From: Anaerolineales bacterium
GTDB taxonomy: Bacteria > Chloroflexota > Anaerolineae > Anaerolineales > UBA4823
Assembly: GCA_016929095.1 (NCBI GenBank)
Contig: JAFGJM010000002.1
Coordinates: 128,137 to 192,136 of the forward strand
Direction of reading: 5' to 3'
Length of the DNA stretch: 64,000 nt
In this document: one piece after another, positions 2,325 through 12,459 of the stretch
How the letters are laid out: every line of letters starts with the position of its first letter
Numbering within the stretch: the stretch's first letter is position 1
Position numbers and translations under genes: made by a program
The notes under the pieces: generated by a model
Told to the model about the DNA's origin: nothing
What the model saw: only the letters and a program-made list of their open reading frames with translations
Databases searched by the model: none

Positions 2325-2559
2325 TATTAGCCTCCTCGGTATCTTCCATACTATCAAAAATCGGGCGCACAACACACTTCAAATCCGGCACTGGTTTATC
2401 ATTCAGTGAATTGATCCATTGCACATAAACCGCACCGCACCCTTCCGGACACGAAAATGTATTACTCCCTTTTGGAATTTCTAATTCACCTTCTGCACCA
2501 CACCCCTCGCAGATAAAATGAAAAGTATTCATGCCATTTTCAGATTTAATTAACTTCAT
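2317..2559 (-). CDS. Small zinc-ribbon protein
   Basis: Two CxxC-type pairs (CEGCG ... CPEGCG). Overlaps both neighbouring genes. Confidence 0.5.
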   Translation of the reverse strand: MKLIKSENGMNTFHFICEGCGAEGELEIPKGSNTFSCPEGCGAVYVQWINSLNDKPVPDLKCVVRPIFDSMEDTEEANNG

Positions 2560-3020
2560 TCCTTGCCTCCAGTCTCACTCAAAAACCTCTGATAAATCTC
2601 TTCCTCTTTCCAGATTGCCTCATCCTGCATTGCCTGGATATCCGGGTCGGTCTCACCAGCGTAATATTCAGGCTTTTTCTCCATTTCTTCAGCTACCAAA
2701 ATATCCGCCAACATCGGATACTTCTTCTGCATGCGCCGCTTTATTCGTTTCTTTCGCACCTCCGCCAGCGTGTCTTTCGGCAATTTCTTATGTGGTGTTG
2801 ATACGGCAGAAATATGGCAACCATATCCATCGCCAAGGGTGTGCAAGGCGGATAGTTGCCTTGGGAAATACTCATCTCCATTGGCTACACGGTTTTTTCG
2901 TTGCTTGATGGTTTCAAACATCTCAGCAATCACTCTGGGTTTACCCTCCGGCGGGTCAGTATAGGGATTACCCCATTGCAAGGTATAGTGATAGCCAATG
3001 TGCGTCATATCATTTCCCAT
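2556..3020 (-). CDS. Hypothetical protein
   Basis: ORF 2556..3032. The start is ambiguous (ATG at 3020 or 3008) next to the upstream TGA at 3010-3012. Confidence 0.45.
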   Translation of the reverse strand: MGNDMTHIGYHYTLQWGNPYTDPPEGKPRVIAEMFETIKQRKNRVANGDEYFPRQLSALHTLGDGYGCHISAVSTPHKKLPKDTLAEVRKKRIKRRMQKKYPMLADILVAEEMEKKPEYYAGETDPDIQAMQDEAIWKEEEIYQRFLSETGGKE

Positions 3021-3888
3021 AATTGTCAACAAACTTTTGTAATTCCCGCCTCATTTCATCCTCACGGTTAACCGCTTCTTTCCATTTATCGAGATCCCGA
3101 TATTTCCATACCGCGGTTTTAACCAGCTCAGCCAAAATACGAGGTTCGATAGCATCCAGTTCCCAGGACGATTCCCCGTAGCGCCTTCGATATTGCTTAA
3201 AACGGGCATCGGTCTCTTTTGCCGGATTTTTGGGAGGCTGCCATTGCTCGATCTGATCCCAATTCAACGCCAGGCGTTCAACCTGAATATCATTGATATC
3301 GGCAAATAATTTCAACCGGTCTTCCACATCACGGGTCATATCGATCCCGGATGGGTCATGGTCTCCCAGGTAAAAAACAATGATTTCATGATTCCCATAT
3401 TTGCCAAGCAGCCTTTTTCCAATATCGTACATCGTGGAAGAAGATGAATATCCCTTATTAGCTGTAAACCGGATATCCAATTCTCGACAAACAGGTATAA
3501 GAACACCTTCCAGGGCTTGCTTTTCGACCATCACTTCGACGTGATAATCCTGGTTTTCCCACTTATCGATGGCAAATTGATCTGCTGCCGCTTCTACAAT
3601 TTCAGCCGGATTATCCCAATGGGTTGAGAATACCGTATGCCTGCCCCGGTCGGTGATCATGTTCCAGTCAACCAGACCAGCCAGACGAGCGTTATTCAAC
3701 AGGTCGCCGGTGCGTTTATATGAACGTTCCGAGTTTTCAATATATCCCCTGGCGACCAATTGGTAGTAAAGCTGTCGAAGAGAAAGATCGTATCCCTCAG
3801 CTGCATATTCTGCCAAAATGGAATTGATCAAATCGATTTTTTGAAGGCTTTCCGGTTTGAACCGTTTTTCAATGAATTGCTCTTTCAT
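3010..3888 (-). CDS. Stand-alone Spo11 / topoisomerase VI subunit A-like protein (winged helix with catalytic-Tyr motif + Toprim)
   Basis: LSLRQLYYQLV matches the R-x-(I/L)-(F/Y)-Y catalytic tyrosine motif. Toprim glutamate in VMVEKQALEGVL. Toprim acidic cluster in FYLGDHDPSGIDM. No B-subunit/GHKL ATPase gene is nearby. Confidence 0.6.
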   Translation of the reverse strand: MKEQFIEKRFKPESLQKIDLINSILAEYAAEGYDLSLRQLYYQLVARGYIENSERSYKRTGDLLNNARLAGLVDWNMITDRGRHTVFSTHWDNPAEIVEAAADQFAIDKWENQDYHVEVMVEKQALEGVLIPVCRELDIRFTANKGYSSSSTMYDIGKRLLGKYGNHEIIVFYLGDHDPSGIDMTRDVEDRLKLFADINDIQVERLALNWDQIEQWQPPKNPAKETDARFKQYRRRYGESSWELDAIEPRILAELVKTAVWKYRDLDKWKEAVNREDEMRRELQKFVDNYGK

Positions 3889-3903
3889 AGGATTTCCGCT
3901 CTC

Positions 3904-4482
3904 TCACACTTCCACCCTGGGCTTTATCAATAATTGCGCCGCCAATCTATTCGCCCTGGTCTCCCGGTTGTGGATCACCTTGACCCCGGTGACGCCCTGC
4001 GCCTGGCTATAACACTCCTCCAGGGTCTCTACCCACCTGCCGGGGATAAATATATAGTTCGTTTCTTCTACATTCGGGGCAAATAAACAGCCTCGCTTAG
4101 GAAATTCGGGCCGCCCGTCGGTATATTTTAAATACACAATCCTGTCTTTCACGCCTTCCACAAAACCCCAAACGGCGATATGTTTCCGATATCGGTTATA
4201 CGCGCCGGGTATATGCGCGCCCAATCTAATAAAACTATGCAATGTCAAACCATCTTTTTCGAAGACATAAGCCTGGCCGGAAGTATCATAATGCACAACC
4301 GCCCGCTTACCCAGGGTTTGGGTCACCTCTACGATCTTCTCGCAAATCCGTTGATCGTGAGCCTGTGTCAGCCAGTTCAATTTGTAAGCGATCAACTTGT
4401 TCAATCCGGTATCGTCCGAACAGTCTTCCGGCATAGCCATCTCTGATAATTGGGTATCAAGCGCCATATCCATGATATTCAA
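3904..4482 (-). CDS. Hypothetical protein
   Basis: 192-aa ORF; its ATG overlaps the upstream stop (ATGA). Confidence 0.5.
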   Translation of the reverse strand: MNIMDMALDTQLSEMAMPEDCSDDTGLNKLIAYKLNWLTQAHDQRICEKIVEVTQTLGKRAVVHYDTSGQAYVFEKDGLTLHSFIRLGAHIPGAYNRYRKHIAVWGFVEGVKDRIVYLKYTDGRPEFPKRGCLFAPNVEETNYIFIPGRWVETLEECYSQAQGVTGVKVIHNRETRANRLAAQLLIKPRVEV

Positions 4483-4685
4483 TTCGCCCTCTCTAAATGC
4501 AAACTTCCGTTTTTTGATACCGACACTATCTTGTAAATAACTCCGCGAATTTCTAGTGTCATACCGCGCCTGGGTTTAAATACTCTCACTTCCTTTATTT
4601 CCGGATCGTTCAATATTTCTTTCATCTTTTCGACGTCGAAAGGTAGAGGCTCTAATGCCTCTCCATTTTTGGTAATTGGTTGCAT
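4479..4685 (-). CDS. Hypothetical small protein
   Basis: 68-aa ORF with a GGAGA RBS in the 15-nt spacer upstream. Confidence 0.45.
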   Translation of the reverse strand: MQPITKNGEALEPLPFDVEKMKEILNDPEIKEVRVFKPRRGMTLEIRGVIYKIVSVSKNGSLHLERAN

Positions 4686-4700
4686 GAATATTTCTCCTCT

Positions 4701-5534
4701 CTATATCTCAATCCCGTACTTCTCCGCCAGGTCATTTATCATCCCGACTCTTTGTATGGCTCGGTAGTGAGCCGCAACGGTCATGTCGTCTTTTTTCATC
4801 ATTTTGCCTATTGCCACCCAACTCAAGCCCTTCGCCTTTGCCTGGATCAAAAAAGCATCGGCGTCGTCTGACCAATTAATGCTGAAGCCCGCCCCGCGGC
4901 CTTTTGGAAAATACAGACCTGGCTTTAAAACCTCGCTTTTCTTGAGTCGCCAGTTGCCCCACTTCTTTCCCTGTATTTTCCCCATATGAATATAGCGGTT
5001 GATATCTCGTTGATCCACACCGTGCCAGGCAGCTGCTTGCCCTGGCGTCCACCATTCATCGTTCCATCGGGCAGCTTCGAGAGCCAGCAGCCGCTTCAAT
5101 TTTTTATCACGGACGTTCTCGACCTTGAAGTATATCCAGCGCTCCGGGTTGACCGCCCATTGATAAAGCTTCGCCTTTCGAATATTCAAAATACCTTTGA
5201 CGCCGGGTATTATCTCCATCGGCAATATCCCCATCCTGGAAAGTTTCATAATACAGTGGATATCCACGCCCAGGGTTTTCGCTGCCTGATGGCCGGTCAA
5301 CCAGCCCGGCCGCCTCGAGTGCGCCGGCATACCTTTGCGTATGCGCCTGATCTTGATCGCCGCCTCGGTTCTGCCCAACGCCAGCCCTATTTCTTCATCG
5401 GTCATTTTCCCGATCTTGGAACGCACAAATTGTTCTTCTTCGAAGAGCCAGGGTTTCCTGACGTATACCCGGGTATCTTTCTCTACCACGGCGACCTGCC
5501 ATACAATATCGGCAATCATGTGAACCACATCCAT
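4701..5534 (-). CDS. Multi-HTH DNA-binding protein (sigma-r4-like, two excisionase/MerR-like HTH, Myb/SANT-like C-terminus)
   Basis: MTDEEIGLALGRTEAAIKIRR; LTGHQAAKTLGVDIHCIMKLSRMG; WTPGQAAAWHGVDQRDINRYIHMG; WSDDADAFLIQAKAKGLSW. Start moved to ATG 5534 (TAATG overlap with the ParB-like stop). Confidence 0.5.
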   Translation of the reverse strand: MDVVHMIADIVWQVAVVEKDTRVYVRKPWLFEEEQFVRSKIGKMTDEEIGLALGRTEAAIKIRRIRKGMPAHSRRPGWLTGHQAAKTLGVDIHCIMKLSRMGILPMEIIPGVKGILNIRKAKLYQWAVNPERWIYFKVENVRDKKLKRLLALEAARWNDEWWTPGQAAAWHGVDQRDINRYIHMGKIQGKKWGNWRLKKSEVLKPGLYFPKGRGAGFSINWSDDADAFLIQAKAKGLSWVAIGKMMKKDDMTVAAHYRAIQRVGMINDLAEKYGIEI

Positions 5535-6394
5535 TACGGCTTTCCCGCTTCTAACATCCGCCGCAATAACTCGACCGCCGGACAATTTCTGCAGCTTTCT
5601 TCCGATGCCACCGGCCGTAATCCGCAACCTTCGCAGGTTGCCGACGCGGCATCTTCCACGACTTTCCACGGCGGTACTTTCCCCAATTGCCGCAAGATAT
5701 CCCAATCTGTTCGCTTTTTACGCTCCTGAACCCGCACCCTGGCAAGAGTGATCGCCGGCGCCCCTTGATTGTATTGACAAGGTTTGTCGGTCATGGCTTT
5801 AGCGACCCGGTCGCATATTCTTAGACTGGTATCCAGTTTTACCCGCCGGCGGACGATTTCTCGGGTAGTTTGTACACGCGCTTGCCGGTCGGTGATGGCA
5901 AGTAAACCCTTGGCAAGACGCGGGTCTCTGTGCAGACTACCAACCGCAATCATTTCCTGGATTTCCGCATCCAGCTTCAATAAAAGCAAACGGTCGTCGA
6001 TGGTCTTGCGGCACTTCCCGGTTTTTAAAGCTATTTGATCGACGCTGAATCCGAATTCTTTTTGAAGGCGCTTATAGCCCAGGGCTTCTTCGATGGGGTT
6101 CAAATCCGCCCGCTGCAAATTGGCGACCATCGCCTGTAACAGGCGCTTGCCGGCGCCGTTGCTGTACGGGGTAATGGCGGCAGGTATTTCTGTCAAACCA
6201 GCCAGCTTCGAGGCTCGCAAACGCCTCTCGCCGTCGACCAGCATATATTTCCCATCGCCCGTTTCCTCGACCGTGACCGCCTGGATCACCCCGTTCTCTC
6301 TAATACTTTGCGCCAAGTCTTCCAGGGAAGTCTGGTCGAAGGTCTTCCGGGGTTGGTCGGGATTGGGAATGATTTTGTTTATTGGAATATTCAT
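5534..6394 (-). CDS. ParB/Spo0J N-terminal-domain (ParB-like nuclease) protein
   Basis: IPINKIIPNPDQPRKTFDQTSLEDLAQSIRENGVIQAVTV...LVDGERRLRASKLAG. Start at ATG 6394, preceded by AAGGAG. The upstream in-frame extension looks non-coding. Confidence 0.75.
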   Translation of the reverse strand: MNIPINKIIPNPDQPRKTFDQTSLEDLAQSIRENGVIQAVTVEETGDGKYMLVDGERRLRASKLAGLTEIPAAITPYSNGAGKRLLQAMVANLQRADLNPIEEALGYKRLQKEFGFSVDQIALKTGKCRKTIDDRLLLLKLDAEIQEMIAVGSLHRDPRLAKGLLAITDRQARVQTTREIVRRRVKLDTSLRICDRVAKAMTDKPCQYNQGAPAITLARVRVQERKKRTDWDILRQLGKVPPWKVVEDAASATCEGCGLRPVASEESCRNCPAVELLRRMLEAGKP

Positions 6395-6536
6395 TTGATT
6401 AATACTCCTTTTCTTTCCTCCCCTTTCCCTGCCCGGGAAAACACCGAAAAACCGGGCAGGGATGTGGAGGGGGATTATGAGCCGGGAATGGGAGACCCGG
6501 GTATACGCCCATATACCTGAGCCGCGCCATCCCGAA

Positions 6537-6577
6537 TCGGCGGCCGGGGAGTCGAACCCCGATTTTCCTCTCCGCCG
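6537..6577 (-). ncRNA. tRNA-like acceptor/T-arm minihelix within a structured 190-nt intergenic spacer
   Basis: Minus strand reads CGGCGG-A-GAGGAAAAT-CGGGG-TTCGACT-CCCCG-G-CCGCCG-A. That gives a 6-bp acceptor-like stem, a canonical T-arm with a TTCGACT loop, and a discriminator-like A. Confidence 0.35.
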
Positions 6578-6585
6578 TATTAAAT

Positions 6586-7482
6586 CTAGGCATAGACGCT
6601 GCACACTTTCGCCAACGCTTTTTCGACATCCATGCCGCAGTCTTTAAATATCTCGAACGCTTTTTCAAGCTCCAGCCCATCCTCGCCGGCCTGCTTGAAA
6701 TAAGGCAGCGCAGTCATTGCCGGGGCAAAGTCGGTATTCTTTCCGGGCGCACCCCCCAACACCAGCCTGGCGATCTCCCTGGCAACTTCGCTGGTGAATT
6801 CAAACTTTCCTCCCGTGGCAGCAATGTAATAAGTGGTGGAGGATACGCGTTCAACAGATGTTGTGGTTGTGGCTGGCGGCGAGTTTGTCGGAGTGTCAGC
6901 CGTGGTAGTGGCCGATGGTGAATTCGTCGGAGTATCAGCCGTGGTTGTTGCAGGCGGCGAATTCGTTGGGGCATTTGTCGTACCTGTTGTTGGCAGCGCA
7001 ACGTGCGCCTTGTTGCCATTGCCGTTGCCTTTGATGATCGCATCCAGGTCTGTATCACCCAGTGGCCGGAAACATAAACCCAGGCTTTCCGTGCAGGCTT
7101 TCAAGGCATCGGTGACGACCGCCTTTAAGACAGTTTCGTACCGCTCAGGAGAAGTATCGTCCAACCCAACACTGTTGCCGTTTTTGTCTTTTGTTGCCAC
7201 CAAAGGCCAGACCCCGACGTCATCATGCGTGACGACTTTCCCGTCGGCAAATTCCACGGTGAGCCGTACCACCGCTTCGACATAGGCATTGTTGTCGTTC
7301 AATGTGACCAGATCCGGTCCCTTTGTGATCATGCTGCTCCAATGGTCAGGCCCGAATACCTGGTTGAGTTTCCATCGCACATAATCCCCGCTGGTAAACG
7401 GGCCTTTTATGCCCGGTTTGATTTTGATATATTTCTTCTCTACAGGAGAAGATAGTGCATCGATCTGTTCTTCGTGATTCAT
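6586..7482 (-). CDS. Rad52/22-type single-strand annealing protein with Pro/Thr-rich repeat linker
   Basis: YVRWKLNQVFGPDHWSSMI...AYVEAVVRLTVEF...GVWP resembles the Rad52/Sak annealing core. Start trimmed to ATG 7482 (GAGG RBS). Confidence 0.65.
   Translation of the reverse strand: MNHEEQIDALSSPVEKKYIKIKPGIKGPFTSGDYVRWKLNQVFGPDHWSSMITKGPDLVTLNDNNAYVEAVVRLTVEFADGKVVTHDDVGVWPLVATKDKNGNSVGLDDTSPERYETVLKAVVTDALKACTESLGLCFRPLGDTDLDAIIKGNGNGNKAHVALPTTGTTNAPTNSPPATTTADTPTNSPSATTTADTPTNSPPATTTTSVERVSSTTYYIAATGGKFEFTSEVAREIARLVLGGAPGKNTDFAPAMTALPYFKQAGEDGLELEKAFEIFKDCGMDVEKALAKVCSVYA
6863..6979. repeat. Three tandem 39-bp coding repeats (TNSP(P/S)ATTTADTP units)
   Basis: Units at 6863-6901, 6902-6940 and 6941-6979 are near-identical. 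They lie in-frame inside the Rad52-like CDS. Confidence 0.85.
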
Positions 7483-7496
7483 CAATAGCCTCGCTT

Positions 7497-8120
7497 TCAG
7501 CTGCAGCGGCTGCAGCTTTCGCATACTTCATTCTGGATTAACTCTTTCAGGATAGCTATCAGGCAGTCTTCCGGGCGCTCGTTCGCTTCTTTGGATTTCA
7601 ATTCTTCGATCTGCTGTTTGTCTGCCTGTTCCTGCGCTTCGCTATAAGCCTTCAATCGCTCCTCGTATATTTTCCCCCGCTCTTCAGCTACCGCCAGAGC
7701 AAGAGATAATTCGAGATATGCATCTCCACGTTCCCTCCAAGAGGGACGCAGCCCGGGGACAATAGCGGGTACATAAAACGTTACACCCGCCCCGATTCTC
7801 CAGGCGTCGTTTACGGTATTTCTTTCTACACAAAACATCAGCGGAGCATAACCAGGAATTTCAGCCCGCATGTAAATTTTCCCTGTGTCGAAACCTGTGA
7901 GCTCGTACCTTCTGTCCTCGATGTATTCCACCATCCACGGCCATTTTTCTTTGATCGGCGCAAGCGCTTCGTTCCACCCTCGAAGCTTTTCAGCGCGATA
8001 CTCTTCGTTACTCCGTTCTTCTTCGATCTGCAAGTTTGCGAGCTTTGTCCGCCCTTCCTCCAGCAGCGCTTCCAGGCTGCGCTCTTCGGTGTTTACTATA
8101 TATTCCGCTTGTGTTTCCAT
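7497..8120 (-). CDS. Hypothetical coiled-coil protein
   Basis: 207-aa ORF, GGAGGG RBS, charged helical termini. Confidence 0.5.
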   Translation of the reverse strand: METQAEYIVNTEERSLEALLEEGRTKLANLQIEEERSNEEYRAEKLRGWNEALAPIKEKWPWMVEYIEDRRYELTGFDTGKIYMRAEIPGYAPLMFCVERNTVNDAWRIGAGVTFYVPAIVPGLRPSWRERGDAYLELSLALAVAEERGKIYEERLKAYSEAQEQADKQQIEELKSKEANERPEDCLIAILKELIQNEVCESCSRCS

Positions 8121-8199
8121 AACTTCCCTCCATAGAACATATTTTCTAATTATATATGTTTTATAATGCCCGTCCGGGTCTCTAACCCGAAATTAATCT

Positions 8200-8592
8200 T
8201 TAGTACCAGTACCTCAAATCTACCTGTCCGTTTGGTACTTTGAATTCGCCGGTCGTGATCATGGTGCGCAAGCGCAGGATTTCTTCCCGGGTGCGCACCG
8301 GCATGGGTTTTCCTGAAAACGCCCGGCAGCGTTTTCCTCTTTCGAAATCGAACCAGGTCTTGCAATTCCATCCATTTTCATTGAGCCAGGCAACCATGTC
8401 GTCGAAAGGCTGTTCATCGGTGGTGTAGCTCTCATCCGCATAAGAGCCGGCAGTCCAGCCTTCTTTGTACTTGCTGACAAAAACCGATCCATCTACCTGT
8501 TCTGTCAGTTCTATCCTCGTGACCGGTTTTTTCTCGTAGTCGGGATCGTGCTTGAAATGATCCCATGAATACATATGCATTCGTTTCATCAC
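8200..8592 (-). CDS. Hypothetical protein
   Basis: 130-aa ORF with a GAGGTG RBS. Confidence 0.5.
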   Translation of the reverse strand: MMKRMHMYSWDHFKHDPDYEKKPVTRIELTEQVDGSVFVSKYKEGWTAGSYADESYTTDEQPFDDMVAWLNENGWNCKTWFDFERGKRCRAFSGKPMPVRTREEILRLRTMITTGEFKVPNGQVDLRYWY

Positions 8593-8628
8593 ACACCTCT
8601 ATCGGTTAAATTGCATCGGGATCTCGTT

Positions 8629-8730
8629 TTACAAAGTACTGTTTTTCCCGATCTGGTAAAGCTCGATAAGCCCCGGGGCGCTGCAGGCGATCACGATTAC
8701 GGCAATCCCGATCAGTTCTATCGTGGTCAT
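8629..8730 (-). CDS. Candidate 33-aa single-TM peptide (below ORF-track cutoff)
   Basis: MTTIELIGIAVIVIACSAPGLIELYQIGKNSTL. Its ATG overlaps the upstream TGA (ATGA at 8727-8730). Confidence 0.35.
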   Translation of the reverse strand: MTTIELIGIAVIVIACSAPGLIELYQIGKNSTL

Positions 8731-9302
8731 CCCGCTATCTCCTGCCATTGAATATCTGAGGCTTTGATGCTTTCGAAGAACCAATATTCAACGCTCTCTT
8801 CCGCCTCGGCGATCACGCGCTCTACAAATTTCTCGATCTCAAAATCGCTGCCCCCCTCGATCTCAGGCAGCCGGTTTATCAAAGTCTCGGCGGCGTCTGC
8901 GGCGCTCAGGTCGGTGGAATTTATCAGCCGGTCAATTCTTTGATAAAGAAATAAGCTGCTGCCCCATTTCAGACACCAACGCCAGATGATACGCCCGGCA
9001 GCTGCCAGCCGGGGCTTGATTTCCAGGAACGCCAGGTTATAGCGGTGGCATTCCGGGCAGTAATAAAAAATGTCAAGTGATGAGGGGGAATAGTTCTCGT
9101 TTTCGGGTATATGCAGCCATTGGCAGGCTTCGCCTTTTGCCAATGTTTTCCCGCAGCGTTTGCAGCAGGCTTTGCGTAAATTACTCTCGCCGGTAGGGAT
9201 AAAATGTTCTTCGTATTCGCCAGGGCGATAGCCGGCGCGCACCTGGTTGCACAAGTCTTCGATATTTGCTTCGTGTTGGGGGTTAATTCGCATTCCACTC
9301 AT
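8727..9302 (-). CDS. Hypothetical zinc-ribbon protein (first gene of leftward operon)
   Basis: CCKRCGK...CPECH Cys pairs; 191-aa ORF. Confidence 0.5.
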   Translation of the reverse strand: MSGMRINPQHEANIEDLCNQVRAGYRPGEYEEHFIPTGESNLRKACCKRCGKTLAKGEACQWLHIPENENYSPSSLDIFYYCPECHRYNLAFLEIKPRLAAAGRIIWRWCLKWGSSLFLYQRIDRLINSTDLSAADAAETLINRLPEIEGGSDFEIEKFVERVIAEAEESVEYWFFESIKASDIQWQEIAG

Positions 9303-9354
9303 TGAATTTTCCTGTTTTGGTATAAAAAAGGTTCATAATCTTCTGTAAAAATTA

Positions 9355-9383
9355 TTGGCAACAAGTATTGCCTATGTTAGAAT
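9355..9383 (+). promoter_or_regulatory. Sigma70-type promoter P1 (TTGGCA-N17-TAGAAT, TGT extended -10)
   Basis: -35 at 9355-9360, 17-nt spacer, -10 at 9378-9383. It ends 29 nt before the tRNA-like gene. Confidence 0.55.
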
Positions 9384-9411
9384 GTTTTTGTTGATATCCC
9401 TTTTCGACCAG

Positions 9412-9480
9412 GGGGCCGGTTGATGGCAACAAGACGGAATTCGCATTCGTCCTATGTGGGTTCGACTCCCACCGGCTCCA
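9412..9480 (+). ncRNA. Non-canonical tRNA-like cloverleaf RNA (tmRNA/tRNA-Ala-like acceptor and T-arm; possible regulatory RNA, phage tRNA or att remnant)
   Basis: Acceptor GGGGCCG/CGGCTCC with G3:U70. Mini D-arm GTTG-ATGG-CAAC. Stem ACGGA/TTCGT closing the 7-nt loop ATTCGCA. Variable CCTAT. T-arm GTGGG-TTCGACT-CCCAC. Discriminator A; no CCA encoded. Confidence 0.55.
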
Positions 9481-9497
9481 CAACACATTTTTGTTAA

Positions 9498-9526
9498 TTG
9501 ACAATTCCATAATTCGATGCTATTAT
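9498..9526 (+). promoter_or_regulatory. Sigma70-type promoter P2 (TTGACA-N17-TATTAT, TGC extended -10)
   Basis: -35 at 9498-9503 and -10 at 9521-9526. Predicted TSS is about 9532-9535. Confidence 0.6.
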
Positions 9527-9530
9527 AGAT

Positions 9531-9635
9531 ATGCGAATTCCGTCTTAGCCCACATGGGGCATCCCGATGAGTTCTTCGTGTATTGGACTCATCATTCATT
9601 AGCGCCGCTCCGGTTTTTCCGGAGCGGTTGTTTTT
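9531..9635 (+). ncRNA. Candidate small RNA 1 (about 105 nt) from P2 to an intrinsic terminator
   Basis: A consensus promoter and a terminator bracket about 105 nt with no credible ORF. The 5' 25 nt are complementary to the tRNA-like RNA. Internal hairpin GCCC-ACATG-GGGC. Confidence 0.5.
9605..9635 (+). terminator. Rho-independent terminator
   Basis: CCGCTCCGG-TTTTT-CCGGAGCGG followed by TTGTTTTT. Confidence 0.75.
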
Positions 9636-9660
9636 ATAAACCGCTTGATTATTTATTTCT

Positions 9661-9689
9661 TTGTTCATTGTGGTTTTTGATGCTAAAAT
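9661..9689 (+). promoter_or_regulatory. Sigma70-type promoter P3 (TTGTTC-N17-TAAAAT, TGC extended -10)
   Basis: -35 at 9661-9666 and -10 at 9684-9689. It shares GATGCTA with P2. Confidence 0.5.
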
Positions 9690-9695
9690 AAATAT

Positions 9696-9800
9696 GGTTT
9701 CCGTTCTTACGGCTGGGCGTTCCAGCCAGGGTGATCGCCGGTCTCCTGCCGGTATCACGATCCGCCGCTCCGGGGGTGTTTCGCCGGGGCGGTTTGTTTT
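9696..9800 (+). ncRNA. Candidate small RNA 2 (about 105 nt), paralogous cassette to small RNA 1
   Basis: Hairpins GGCTGG-GCGTT-CCAGCC and GTGAT..CCGG-TCTCCTG-CCGG..ATCAC. The terminator uses the same left arm CGCCGCTCCGG as cassette 1. Confidence 0.45.
9765..9800 (+). terminator. Rho-independent terminator
   Basis: CCGCTCCGG / CCGGGGCGG stem (one G:U), 10-nt loop, then TTTGTTTT. Confidence 0.7.
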
Positions 9801-9848
9801 ACGGGGGAGATAATTATCAATTAAGTATTTTGACTTCATAACAAACAC

Positions 9849-9877
9849 AATATAGCATAAACTTATCAATATGTCAA
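9849..9877 (-). promoter_or_regulatory. Leftward sigma70-type promoter PL (TTGACA-N17-TATATT, TGC extended -10)
   Basis: Minus strand: -35 at 9877-9872 and -10 at 9854-9849. The 8-mer TTATCAAT (9863-9870) sits in its spacer. Confidence 0.55.
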
Positions 9878-9905
9878 GATGTTGATACTGTTACTAGTAT
9901 ATATC

Positions 9906-9934
9906 TTGACATGCGTTATCAATTGTGCTAATAT
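9906..9934 (+). promoter_or_regulatory. Rightward promoter PR for the XRE gene (TTGACA-N17-TAATAT, TGC extended -10)
   Basis: -35 at 9906-9911 and -10 at 9929-9934. The 8-mer TTATCAAT (9916-9923) sits in its spacer. Confidence 0.6.
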
Positions 9935-9967
9935 GTACTCAATAAAACTTTTCGGGAAAGGAGTGAA

Positions 9968-10201
9968 ATGCTCGTTGATATGGCTACAGGGACTCGTTTT
10001 TTGCGGGTCTCCGAAATACGAGAGCAAGCCGGCATTAGCGTTGAAGAACTAGCAACTCGCGCCGATATTGCTTACAATACAGCGCTATCGTATGAGCGAG
10101 ATGTGAGCGAATTGATTAGTAAAAAAGTGTTACGAAAAATCGCAAAAGCTCTCGGTGTCAGGGTTCGCGATTTAATCGCTGACGATGAGGAGACAAATTA
10201 A
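9968..10201 (+). CDS. XRE-family (Cro/CI-type) HTH transcriptional regulator
   Basis: VSEIREQAGISVEELATRADIAYNTALSYERD...LRKIAKALGVRVRDLI. AAAGGAG RBS. Confidence 0.8.
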   Translation: MLVDMATGTRFLRVSEIREQAGISVEELATRADIAYNTALSYERDVSELISKKVLRKIAKALGVRVRDLIADDEETN

Positions 10202-10389
10202 AAAACGAAGTCCCCGGTCATAAAACCGAGAACCTCATTTCCCAAAAATATGGGCATCATTTTCTCCACCCGGGAGCTTGCCGGCTAAAGGTGGAGAACC
10301 AAACAACTCAAAGGAGTTGGGATGGTAAATAAAACAATTGATTATTCAATCGATCCGCATATCTCCATCAATCAATATAATTTACATTG

Positions 10390-11127
10390 CTATCTTGTCG
10401 CAGTTGGGAATTGAACATACTTGGATAATGTTTTTGTTGGAAATGGCGATTTTGTCGCCACAATTCGGTTGGTCGGATATGGAGTTGGTGAACCGTGATT
10501 ATCAAAAATAGCCTTTGTGGACACAATCAAATTATCACAATTCGGCGCGCACGCTTCAATTTCCTTGATCATCTCGACGACTTTCAGCGCCGCAACATTG
10601 CCCATGCCTATATATTCACCCGCCAAAGTGCTGTCTGCATCTTGCATAAACTCCATATATCCCTGAATGTAATAATCCATCGCATCGATATATATAGTTT
10701 TCAACTCTTCCATACAATGCGGTACCTCGACTTTTTGCGTTTCCCGTCGGATCTCTTGAAGGTTGGCAACCGGGCTAGACAAAGCGATCCTGGGCGTGCT
10801 GTTCGCAATATCGATAGCATCTCCCCAGCGAAGTTGGATATCTCTCAAATCTGCCATTGCCCTATCAACATCGGATTTACGACATGTGTTATTTGCACTT
10901 GAATAATTATTATTAGAACCGGAAAAATTAAGAGCTATGAGCGAGAGCGCCAAAATAACAACAATTGCCATGACAACATTCATTACTTTGTTATATGTAT
11001 TCCACCGATTGCGTTTACTCGGTTTATTGATTTTTTCCCTGGCATCGGATACATTCAGCGCCGCACCGCATCCAGAACAATACCTGGCTGCTGCATCATT
11101 TTCATATCCGCAATGTTCACATTTCAT
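10390..11127 (-). CDS. Zinc-ribbon / single-TM membrane-anchored protein
   Basis: MKCEHCGYENDAAARYCSGCGA zinc ribbon, then TM VMNVVMAIVVILALSLIAL and an extracytoplasmic domain. Confidence 0.6.
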   Translation of the reverse strand: MKCEHCGYENDAAARYCSGCGAALNVSDAREKINKPSKRNRWNTYNKVMNVVMAIVVILALSLIALNFSGSNNNYSSANNTCRKSDVDRAMADLRDIQLRWGDAIDIANSTPRIALSSPVANLQEIRRETQKVEVPHCMEELKTIYIDAMDYYIQGYMEFMQDADSTLAGEYIGMGNVAALKVVEMIKEIEACAPNCDNLIVSTKAIFDNHGSPTPYPTNRIVATKSPFPTKTLSKYVQFPTATR

Positions 11128-11237
11128 ATTTCACCCCTTTAGGAAAATAACCTGTGATTAACCCGATTAAACACTTGCATATTTATATGCCTTATGGCAT
11201 AAATAGAATAGATGTTCGAGAACAGGAGGACACAATA

Positions 11238-11387
11238 TTATTTTTCGATTTTTGTAGCCGGCTTCTGAGTTTGATTTTTATGATCGGCCTCTTTAACGTG
11301 TACTGTTGTCATTGGCTTTGGTAATGTTTTTTCTTTTGGGTTTTTTGGCGGATTATTTTGTTTGAATGAAGAGTATTTTGTAATCAT
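11238..11387 (-). CDS. Candidate 49-aa Lys/Pro-rich peptide (below ORF-track cutoff)
   Basis: MITKYSSFKQNNPPKNPKEKTLPKPMTTVHVKEADHKNQTQKPATKIEK. It uses the minus-strand reading of the palindromic GGAGATCTCC as its SD. Confidence 0.25.
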   Translation of the reverse strand: MITKYSSFKQNNPPKNPKEKTLPKPMTTVHVKEADHKNQTQKPATKIEK

Positions 11388-11398
11388 GGAGATCTCCT

Positions 11399-11929
11399 AT
11401 GGCTAAAAATCTTGATACAATGCCCTTCAGCGGCAATATCGAAGGTTATAAATGGGCAATATCAGAACTTAAAGACAATCTATCGAATCAATATATAAGT
11501 ATCACAGCCTCAAAAAATATTGCCCAATCTATGTTTTCGTCATCCAGTATGATTATTGCTATCATTGGCGTTTTTCAAATTTTGAATATATCTATCAATC
11601 CAGAAATCGCAACTCTTTATAACGTGATCCTATTGTTGGCTTTGCTTCTTTATGTATCACTGGTTATTTTGTGTATCTTTGTATTAACGCCGCCTGATGT
11701 ATATGGTACAACTGGCAATGATTGGGATGAAATTTATCCTGCATTTATTGATCAAAAAGAAGATCGTCAGATATATCGCCAGTTGATTTCAAATTACATA
11801 AGTGCTATCGAAAATAACAAACCTATAATCACAAAAAGAGTTTTGCTTTCTAAAATAACAGGATATTTATTTGCGTGTATTGTGATTATGGTATTTGTAT
11901 TAATATTGCTTCCTCTCTATAATCCATAA
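11399..11929 (+). CDS. Three-TM membrane protein of unknown function
   Basis: TMs at MIIAIIGVFQIL, ILLLALLLYVSLVILCIFVL and YLFACIVIMVFVLILLPL. SD GGAG lies 7 nt upstream. Confidence 0.6.
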   Translation: MAKNLDTMPFSGNIEGYKWAISELKDNLSNQYISITASKNIAQSMFSSSSMIIAIIGVFQILNISINPEIATLYNVILLLALLLYVSLVILCIFVLTPPDVYGTTGNDWDEIYPAFIDQKEDRQIYRQLISNYISAIENNKPIITKRVLLSKITGYLFACIVIMVFVLILLPLYNP

Positions 11930-12057
11930 AAAGTCCGGCCGGCGCAAGTGCAATACCTGCGCCAGCCGATGAGACTTGCTGACCTGCAAAATCTACCCAG
12001 ATCACCCAGGCCAGCGCAGAACCTTAACAACGAAATCGCTGTCAAAGCTTCCACAGA

Positions 12058-12131
<74 letters not shown>

Positions 12132-12459
12132 ATGCGGACGAATTATACCGCAAAGAAATGAGATGTCAACTTTATGCCCCTTATGACTCTCTGTATCTTT
12201 TTATATACATTTTTACCTAAAATTTCCCCGTTTTTTACTTACAAATCTATTTATTCTTTATATTTTGTTTATATTTTTACGCAAGTTTTACGGTAAGTAT
12301 TTACTAACCCTGTATAGTGTAAAGAACCATAATGGTAAGAATCGGTCGAGATCCCTAGTGGCATCTTGTGAATAATTAAGGGTTGAAAACGATTATTGTT
12401 GTCATATTGCCTGCCTGAATAATTAAATACGTGATTTTTAGAAATAGGATTTCTGGCAT

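Follow-up and report, generated by a model that had tools for sequence, protein, structure and literature searches.

Here we analysed a stretch of 64,000 nucleotides (nt), called the window throughout, from a metagenome-assembled genome (MAG) of Anaerolineales (Chloroflexota), as its source is named on the database entry of an adjacent protein, and we describe at positions 9355-9636 a cassette of two small genes, one for a transfer RNA (tRNA)-shaped RNA and the other for a small RNA (sRNA) whose 5' end is complementary to the anticodon-like arm of the first. The cassette is located in a 665-nt intergenic region of a prophage, between an early gene (8727-9302, minus strand) and a gene for a helix-turn-helix (HTH) protein (9968-10201, plus strand). 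An initial annotation had noticed the complementarity and had proposed an antisense immunity or switch RNA in the style of c4 of phage P1 and CI of phage P4. The cassette comprises the following features.

9355-9383, plus strand: promoter P1 of the tRNA-like RNA, TTGGCA-17-TAGAAT (10/12, with TG)
9412-9480, plus strand: the tRNA-shaped RNA, of 69 nt up to and including the discriminator A, after which CAA stands instead of CCA
9431-9446, plus strand: block A on the tRNA-like side, AAGACGGAATTCGCAT, made of 2 nt, the anticodon-stem 5' strand, the whole 7-nt loop and 1 nt
9449-9462, plus strand: block B on the tRNA-like side, made of the anticodon-stem end, the variable loop, the T-stem 5' strand and 2 loop nt
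9498-9526, plus strand: promoter P2, TTGACA-17-TATTAT (11/12, with a TG extension), between the complementary arms
9531-9636, plus strand: RNA2, a predicted sRNA of about 105 nt with the seed block A' (9531-9546), a second block (9547-9560), an internal hairpin and a terminator

The predicted start of promoter P1, near 9390, gives a leader of about 22 nt before 9412, and a leader of this predicted length would be compatible with 5' maturation by RNase P. The minimum free energy (MFE) fold of 9412-9483 is a clean cloverleaf of -28.2 kcal/mol, with an acceptor stem of 7 base pairs (bp; 9412-9418/9473-9479) that includes G3:U70 and is followed by A73, a D arm (9419-9430) with a 4-bp stem and the 4-nt loop AUGG that joins the acceptor with no linker nucleotide, an anticodon stem of 6 bp (9433-9438/9446-9451) closing the 7-nt loop AUUCGCA (9439-9445), a 4-nt variable loop, and a T arm (9456-9472) with a 5-bp stem and the loop UUCGACU. 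This T loop and the GG of the D loop preserve the elbow of a tRNA and with it the L-shape. Tools for recognising such genes passed it over: the only tRNA that ARAGORN called in the window was tRNA-Lys at 12056-12132, and Rfam at the gathering threshold, applied to the whole window, likewise returned tRNA-Lys only and called 9412-9480 neither as a tRNA nor as anything else. Of the further Rfam models that the initial annotation had proposed to run, the one for C4 antisense RNA (RF01695) gave no match in the whole window at gathering or in 9000-10400 at E<=10, contrary to the suggested P1 c4/P4 CI type. The model for transfer-messenger RNA (tmRNA; RF00023) reached 33.6 bits (E 1.7e-11) at a permissive threshold, below its gathering score of 47, and aligned only its two ends (1-18 and 345-374), with 31 nt in place of 326; G3:U70 and the T arm are tmRNA-type features present in the RNA, the pseudoknots and the tag frame are not. 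At the same permissive threshold the eukaryotic mascRNA model scored 26 bits. The canonical rules for anticodon loops are also departed from, both here and at the homologous loci L148 and L156 described below, by a pyrimidine at position 37 (C37; U37 in L156), C33 in L148 and an anticodon stem of 6 bp. The tRNA-like RNA is thus neither a canonical tRNA nor a tmRNA.

Examination of the pairing bore out the observations from which the initial annotation had started. Positions 9431-9446 do comprise the anticodon-stem 5' strand and the whole loop, as the MFE cloverleaf confirms, and this segment (AAGACGGAATTCGCAT) is a 16/16 Watson-Crick complement of 9531-9546 (ATGCGAATTCCGTCTT), with 84 nt between the two. 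The resulting inverted repeat is the longest perfect one (loop of 20-200 nt) in the window, and none of 100 first-order Markov randomisations reached 16, the maximum being 15, attained once. The right arm begins, as had been claimed, where transcription from P2 is predicted to start (about 9531-9534), and RNA2 ends in a strong intrinsic terminator (9604-9628 and a U tract), with no open reading frame (ORF) behind it, antirepressor-type or other. A single transcript of the c4 kind with its target downstream is therefore not what is found, because an 11/12 promoter separates the arms and the target lies in a terminated RNA with no ORF behind it. The second pairing that had been noticed is also present and longer than noted (block B, 9449-9462 with 9547-9560, 14 bp including 3 G:U), and is indeed not colinear with block A; its counterpart is absent at L148, L156 and L166, so that it belongs to the window only.

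Homologues were sought with patterns, used in a metagenome scan and then in a genome scan, that fixed only the scaffold (GGGG, the D-region GATGG, the T loop and CTCCA); complementarity between the loop and a downstream RNA was not part of the search pattern. The metagenome scan gave 30 loci, L148 and L156 among them, and the genome scan two contigs, L165 (which is the L148 contig) and L166. L148 comes from a Vulcanimicrobiota MAG and L166 from Candidatus Baltobacteraceae; L156 is a metagenome contig without organism label, its scaffold being identical to that of L148 and L166. All three Eremiobacterota loci present a 72-nt tRNA-like gene, about 50 nt containing a promoter of the sigma-70 type, an RNA of about 65 nt and a terminator, in the order and spacing seen in the window. 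The promoter of L166 (TTGCGA-17-TATAAT) scores 10/12 by the scan tool and the homologous sites in L148 and L156 score 8/12; a terminator was called at both L156 and L166. The three loci have the acceptor, D arm and T arm in identical form and differ entirely in the anticodon-arm region, and at each locus the sRNA 5' end pairs with its own loop and stem, over 14 bp in L148 (1 G:U), 15 bp in L156 (2 G:U) and 13 bp in L166, the window having 16 bp. The G:U extensions of these helices exist on the plus strand only (the minus strand of L156 would keep just 9 contiguous pairs), and the plus strand is taken to be the functional one because the T loop, the D-loop GG, G3:U70 and the G:U extensions are found only there and the promoters are so oriented. 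The three modules lie in ordinary chromosomal contexts without phage genes. We found no conserved protein partner at the four loci, whose neighbours match no defence family except a generic HNH domain. In 4/4 loci the module is flanked on either side by a gene of the other strand, which may simply reflect that a sense insertion with two terminators would be polar.

The four loci together show how loop and sRNA have changed in concert. In the loop-anchored, 15-column intermolecular helix (register chosen per locus), 91.7% of the cells pair against 57% in shuffles (0/500), 13 of the 15 pairs are changed on both sides across the loci, and slid registers leave 27-37% pairing. Counted from the -10 hexamer, the first seed base falls at +5, +6, +9 and +6, which nearly fixes the position of the seed independently of the pairing. 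L148 and L166 differ by single compensated changes, for example loop U33 to C33 with A to G in the sRNA, and outside the anticodon arm five stem pairs (in acceptor, T and D stems) are changed on both sides between the window and its Eremiobacterota homologues. Cofolding gains (ddG) for the cognate pairs are -14.3 (window), -17.6, -22.0 and -21.3 kcal/mol, those for non-cognate pairs range from 0 to -7.8, and the window tRNA-like RNA gains 0 with the non-cognate sRNAs; binding is thus predicted by these models to be cognate-specific. Three of the four loops contain a YUNR motif (UUCG, CUGA, CUUG). Controls gave nothing comparable. Among about 160 ordinary phage tRNAs, which were the matches of a first and too loose viral pattern scan, the longest complement within +-300 nt was 11 nt, and a scan for T arm, CTCCA and promoter, which returned mostly tmRNA 3' ends, yielded 67 viral loci whose RNA body was complementary over no more than 8 nt to the 35 nt downstream of the -10. 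Two more viral scaffold scans returned nothing or ordinary phage tRNA-Ala, and a scan for the promoter-start motif of P2 and of its paralogue P3 (see below) returned generic extended -10 promoters only. Taken as sequence evidence, three homologous loci with compensating sequences in the same layout support the view that the pairing of loop and 5' end is under selection, and the recurring two-gene layout appears to be a real, undescribed RNA-RNA recognition module. The test of covariation that the initial annotation had called for supports block A; block B was not kept in the homologues. Its idea of an antisense RNA acting on the neighbouring transcript holds insofar as the pairing with the 5' end of that transcript co-varies at four loci, and fails in that the target is a terminated sRNA rather than the leader of an mRNA. 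The earlier reading is therefore partly supported: its general idea of co-evolving antisense partners, one of them built on a tRNA-like scaffold, holds, and its assignment to the C4 family and its type of target do not.

Most of the 30 metagenome matches were set aside as a different tRNA-like family with no nearby complement. This commoner family of about 70 nt (L135, L137, L140, L142-L147, L149-L155 and L158-L163) has a G(G/T)GGATGGTTCCC D region, an anticodon-like stem of 9-10 bp and loops of the form CUNNN(C/G)A, including CUA and UUA; almost all its members are missed by ARAGORN and Rfam, and a hairpin lies shortly upstream in the copies inspected. Some members are then followed by an IS1-like transposase gene and others lie by odd long-arm tRNAs, for example Ile-UAU, resembling allo-tRNA clusters. 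No member has a nearby complement to its loop.

We propose, with a probability of roughly 60%, that 9355-9636 is a self-contained pair of a tRNA-scaffolded antisense RNA and its cognate sRNA decoy, which here may include a switch for the early genes of the prophage. The first gene would yield an L-shaped RNA whose anticodon-like arm serves not for decoding but for antisense recognition of variable specificity, displayed on a U-turn-type loop of 7 nt, the tRNA fold supplying stability, defined ends and the pre-organisation of that loop. The second gene, from its own strong promoter about 50 nt downstream, would produce a short terminated sRNA with the cognate partner sequence at its extreme 5' end. 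Pairing in trans would begin with nucleation of this 5' end on the loop and proceed by displacement of the anticodon-stem 3' strand to a helix of 13-16 bp, each RNA so masking the other's only exposed recognition surface. We infer that the stable tRNA-shaped RNA would be the effector and the sRNA a decoy that titrates it.

The part of this proposal that concerns the prophage depends on the surroundings of the cassette, where the following further features are found.

8727-9302, minus strand: first gene of the leftward early operon, encoding an orphan protein of 191 amino acids (aa)
9285-9295, minus strand: segment of the early-gene mRNA, 5'-GAAUGCGAAUU-3', a possible third partner (+8 to +18, codons 3-6 of 8727-9302)
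9661-9689, plus strand: promoter P3, TTGTTC-17-TAAAAT, its -10/start region paralogous to that of P2 (GATGCTAnnATAnATATG; direct repeat D1, 81%)
9694-9800, plus strand: RNA3, paralogous to RNA2, which it matches in start context and in terminator core (CGCCGCTCCGG)
9849-9877, minus strand: leftward early promoter, TTGACA-17-TATATT (11/12)
9968-10201, plus strand: gene of a 77-aa HTH_3 (Cro/CI-type) repressor, with a promoter at 9906-9934 and flanked by TTATCAAT / GTTGATA operator-like repeats

The right part of the prophage occupies the window from 1 to about 12080, where tRNA-Lys(ctt) (12056-12132) forms its end. Logan contig L252, in which the same phage was assembled independently, is 100% identical to window 2417-12083, which rules out an assembly artefact, and its breaking off at 12083, inside tRNA-Lys(ctt), marks the right attachment site there. 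Between the repressor and tRNA-Lys lie genes for a zinc-ribbon protein and for a 176-aa protein with no family match, without the integrase that related phages have. The leftward operon encodes DUF5131 (phage Gp37/Gp68-type), PHROG 6247, ParB-like and Rad52-like annealing proteins besides several orphans. The 191-aa protein of its first gene matched in the database only itself, from the Anaerolineales MAG, and no Pfam, PHROG or PADLOC family. The promoter at 9877-9849 is strong and conserved in related phages, and its transcript must run antisense across all three RNA genes before it arrives at the early genes. On the minus strand at 9357-9372, just upstream of the ribosome-binding site belonging to the first early gene, a hairpin of the terminator type with a T run shares positions with the -35 of promoter P1, and early transcription may need read-through there. 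The repeat TTATCAAT has 3 copies within 110 bp (9814-9923) and 6 in the whole window; GTTGATA has 3 copies (9390, 9881 and 9974), the half-site at 9390 coinciding with the predicted start of promoter P1. These operator-like repeats cluster at 9814-9974, a palindrome (9863-9887) spans the -35 of the early promoter, and together they are probably the operators of the 77-aa repressor. Promoter P3 is below the threshold of the promoter scan tool. The 5' end of RNA3 has no significant complement in the tRNA-like RNA or in the rest of the window (ddG 0), and RNA3 was rejected as a second partner of the tRNA-like RNA for want of significant pairing; it may be an orphaned partner or one of heterologous specificity.

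Elsewhere in the operon, between the stop of the Rad52-like gene and the start of the ParB gene (6535-6575, minus strand), stands a piece resembling a tRNA 3' half or minihelix (CGGCGG..CGGGG-TTCGACT-CCCCG-GCCGCCG-A) that has 13 nt in common with the T-loop region of the tRNA-like RNA and an ordinary fold energy (z -0.69), and could be a recombination scar or an mRNA processing signal. The Rad52-like protein (6586-7524) itself contains a low-complexity repeat, PTNSPPATTTADT, in about 3 copies at residues ~190-235, between the annealing domain and the C-terminal part.

Within this setting, the segment AATTCGCATTC of the tRNA-like RNA (9438-9448, that is the last stem nucleotide, the whole loop and 3 more nt) is directly repeated over 11 nt at 9285-9295 of the plus strand, and the early mRNA accordingly contains, within the ribosome footprint, its complement GAAUGCGAAUU. 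The 5' end of RNA2 carries a longer version of the same early-gene site (AUGCGAAUUCCGUCUU). The -35 region of P2 is a 12/13 copy of a site at 9812-9824 and also resembles the early promoter (repeats I1 and I3). The early-gene site gives with the tRNA-like RNA a cofold ddG of -5.3 kcal/mol, the full-length duplex energy being ordinary compared with shuffles. In the prophage, the cassette would lie antisense within the 540-nt leader of the early lytic operon, and we infer that the free tRNA-like RNA would bind codons 3-6 of the first early gene through 11 paired nt and damp its translation, until loss of the repressor allowed RNA2 to be made and to strip the tRNA-like RNA off the early mRNA. Such a release by RNA2 is suggested because RNA2 holds the longer copy of the site and P2 shares sequence with the repressor-controlled early promoter. 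Drawn from these sequence matches, the early-gene segment as a third partner, and with it the decoy circuit of RNA2, is put forward as a lead, not a result.

Prophages related to the one in the window (L121-L134 and L253) were reached via homologues of ParB (61-67% identity) and of the HTH protein (71-86%). They have the same gene order, their repressor is 71-86% identical, and the divergent promoter region of the window (9849-9912) is 84-86% identical in L121 and L124; their spacer of about 160-230 nt between repressor and early gene contains no tRNA-like gene or cassette. The cassette is therefore an accessory insertion here and not the core immunity system of this phage family, a conclusion that also follows from the modules found elsewhere in chromosomal contexts without phage genes. 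The RNA module may have been recruited to the leader of the early operon. Its absence also makes the related prophages unusable for covariation. A similarity search of window 9300-10300 at the DNA level against phage, plasmid and E. coli collections gave no match, and no relatives of the HTH protein and of a 207-aa protein were found in viral contigs. In L121 (1630-1680) and L127 (3975-4027) a tRNA 3' half (anticodon loop CTCATAA, T arm and acceptor strand) lies directly after the integrase gene, presumably a phage attachment site (attP) that targets a tRNA gene with the anticodon CAU, unlike the tRNA-Lys used here. The T-arm match near the integrase of these relatives was rejected as a homologue of the tRNA-like RNA, being a generic T arm (E 0.32) of a tRNA 3' half at attP.

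Several points weigh against an antisense RNA and its decoy. All the transcription starts and 3' ends are predictions. The four loci represent two lineages, the three Eremiobacterota loci being closely related, and the search pattern accounts for part of the scaffold similarity between the lineages, G3:U70 included. No gene follows the sRNA and no protein neighbour of the module is conserved, related prophages manage without the cassette, and RNA3 and block B stay outside the proposed explanation. As for the early-gene site, it is of 11 bp with a ddG of -5.3, was found post hoc and has no counterpart at the other three loci, and matches of 10-11 nt are not rare in 12 kb.

The same observations can be read in other ways, two of which we consider unlikely rather than negligible. 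The pair might be an all-RNA toxin-antitoxin or abortive-infection system, in which a chargeable tRNA of alanine identity with a non-alanine anticodon would mistranslate and an unstable sRNA antitoxin would mask that anticodon, loss of the sRNA releasing mistranslation throughout the proteome. The anticodon would be UCG in the window and GAC and UGA in the homologues, with G3:U70 and A73 in the window; 4/4 loci retain the elbow and a loop of 7 nt reading N-U/C-NNN-C/U-A, although the sequence is otherwise free to vary; and the pairing covers the whole or nearly the whole loop in every locus. The ACAA end is no argument against charging, because the host tRNA-Lys is likewise without an encoded CCA. 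Circumstantially, a stand-alone module with patchy distribution, hypervariable specificity and an accessory site in a prophage also suits a toxin. CGA is a common codon (8-10 per 1000), so that decoding Arg as Ala would be broadly harmful, and AUG-CGA stands in frame both at the 5' end of RNA2 and in the early gene. (The supply of rare codons by a phage tRNA-Arg(UCG) was rejected, CGA not being rare.) A translating tRNA is, however, hard to reconcile with a molecule that neither ARAGORN nor the Rfam tRNA model (RF00005) recognises, that has no acceptor-D linker nucleotide, a 4-nt D loop and an anticodon stem of 6 bp or irregular, and that presents a pyrimidine at position 37 in 4/4 loci; the G3:U70 of the homologues was imposed by the search pattern, and the replacement of U33 by C in L148 is compensated in the sRNA, by which the loop follows the sRNA and not the rules of decoding. 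It is also doubtful that the arms pair in cis, as a helix in a read-through transcript from P1 or in the minus-strand early leader that would act as an attenuator, processing site or roadblock, with the plus-strand promoters working mainly through convergent transcription and full-length antisense. The MFE fold of 9390-9636 does use the 16-bp helix and abolishes the cloverleaf, the tRNA-like gene and P2 have no strong terminator between them, transcription from the 11/12 leftward promoter at 9877-9849 has to pass the cassette, both flanking genes oppose the module in 4/4 loci, and covariation alone does not separate cis from trans. Pairing in trans is nevertheless favoured because the two arms are separated by a promoter in 4/4 loci, with only a few nt between its predicted transcription start and the first base of the downstream arm, an arrangement for which a helix in cis would offer no reason; the tRNA features and the G:U extensions of the helix are confined to the plus strand, and the antisense orientation is trivially explained by the polarity of a sense insertion with two terminators.

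The similarity to tmRNA allows for a split ribosome-rescue pair, in which a free tRNA-like domain would be joined by an mRNA-like sRNA docked through a helix similar to P2 of tmRNA. The tmRNA model aligns both ends of the tRNA-like RNA (33.6 bits, E 1.7e-11), G3:U70 is an identity element of tmRNA and alanine, and in the three Eremiobacterota sRNAs the frame to a conserved UAA in the terminator loop (CAGUAAUG) is, by eye, open from the 5' end. These open frames are statistically ordinary (about 0.5 each), the putative tags (..REAPQ, ..HEAQQ) are unlike degradation tags, no resume-codon context is conserved and RNA2 of the window has no such frame; moreover the model match is below the gathering score, with the 326-nt body reduced to 31 nt, and L148 has no tmRNA match at all. 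We regard this reading as very unlikely, and as less credible still the one in which the repeat is a DNA element, either a pair of recombinase sites around an invertible promoter P2 or a remnant of an attachment site. Arms of 16 bp flank an 84-bp segment with P2, and related phages carry a tRNA 3' half as attP by the integrase. The arms of the homologues differ completely and the enclosed segment is conserved, which is the opposite of a recombinase site, so that this possibility, raised at the outset, finds no favour; the ORFs scanned in window 1-12 kb included no recombinase gene, nor was one seen beside the other loci, 84 bp is very short for inversion, and the similarity to the attachment sites of the relatives is that of a generic T arm (E 0.32). 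Scarcely any weight can be given to a functionless relic of a local inverted duplication or a chance match. Bases 1-30 of RNA2 are a circular permutation of the reverse complement of positions 20-51 of the tRNA-like RNA, and RNA3 looks like a decayed copy, but the repeat is longer than in all randomisations, and another phylum has it too, with compensatory changes and in the same place with respect to a promoter.

If confirmed, the pair would be a natural use of the complete tRNA fold as a scaffold for a programmable antisense element with its partner RNA encoded next to it, and would represent a new architecture among the RNA regulators of bacteria and phages. The module would be common to Chloroflexota, in a prophage, and Eremiobacterota, in chromosomes, with specificities that have diversified and are predicted not to cross-react. 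To our knowledge almost nothing is known of sRNAs in these two phyla. Confirmation would also provide a testable candidate for control of a prophage early operon at the level of RNA, and a set of orthogonal RNA-RNA pairs on a stable scaffold usable in synthetic biology. Gene finders for tRNA, and Rfam, overlook a class of tRNA-shaped genes. Our searches of the literature brought up no account of a tRNA-shaped RNA for which an RNA complementary to the anticodon arm is encoded alongside.

Comparison with known systems shows likenesses in parts of the module. With tmRNA the window RNA shares the GGGG...CUCCA acceptor, G3:U70, a reduced D region and a canonical T arm, and differs in having neither pseudoknots nor tag frame, a closed 7-nt loop replacing the body. 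The pyrrolysine tRNA (tRNA-Pyl) of M. alvus has no acceptor-D linker, a 4-nt D loop, a 6-bp anticodon stem and a short variable loop, and some allo-tRNAs combine G3:U70 with non-alanine anticodons (PMC7609411). The window RNA has the same four features as this tRNA-Pyl, and possesses in addition the elbow formed by G18G19 and T-psi-C that tRNA-Pyl is without. Neither tRNA-Pyl nor the allo-tRNAs are known to have a co-encoded RNA complementary to the anticodon arm. In the module, position 37 is a pyrimidine and position 33 varies with the partner RNA.

Neutralisation of one small RNA by another through pairing or target mimicry is known from AgvB-GcvB (in a prophage), 3'ETS-leuZ-RyhB and CreT-CreA (type VIII), and several such anti-sRNA or sponge RNAs and RNA-RNA toxin-antitoxin pairs are prophage-encoded or derived from tRNA transcripts. 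None of these cases is known to combine conserved adjacency of the two genes, co-varying specificity and a tRNA scaffold; CreA works by way of Cascade, and for the present module toxicity is hypothetical. In IS10 RNA-OUT/RNA-IN, CopA/CopT, Sok/hok and ColE1 RNA I, an exposed loop of a stable antisense RNA starts the pairing; in IS10 the contact on the target is the extreme 5' end of the target RNA, loops of the YUNR type speed antisense pairing, and ColE1 RNA I is cloverleaf-shaped. Initiation between a loop and an RNA, with YUNR in 3/4 loops, is what the module would have in common with them, but these systems are encoded in cis, overlapping and fully complementary, whereas here the genes do not overlap, the complementarity is of 13-16 nt and the shape is that of a true tRNA.

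The c4 RNA of P1/P7 and the CI RNA of P4 are small stable phage antisense RNAs, substrates of the RNase P type, that act through short blocks on sites downstream on the same strand, and in P1/P7 heteroimmunity the specificity blocks co-evolve with their targets. The specificity block of the window module co-varies with its target in the same way. It differs in being carried by a full cloverleaf with T loop and D-loop GG that has no match to the C4 family, of which the module is not a member, and in being directed at the 5' end of an sRNA with a promoter and a terminator of its own, the c4 target lying in the same transcript before an antirepressor or replication gene; a single block is conserved here, the module also occurs outside phages, and sister prophages are without it. 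Together with RNA-OUT/RNA-IN of IS10, c4 of P1/P7 and CI of P4 are the systems functionally closest to the pair of RNAs encoded at 9355-9636.

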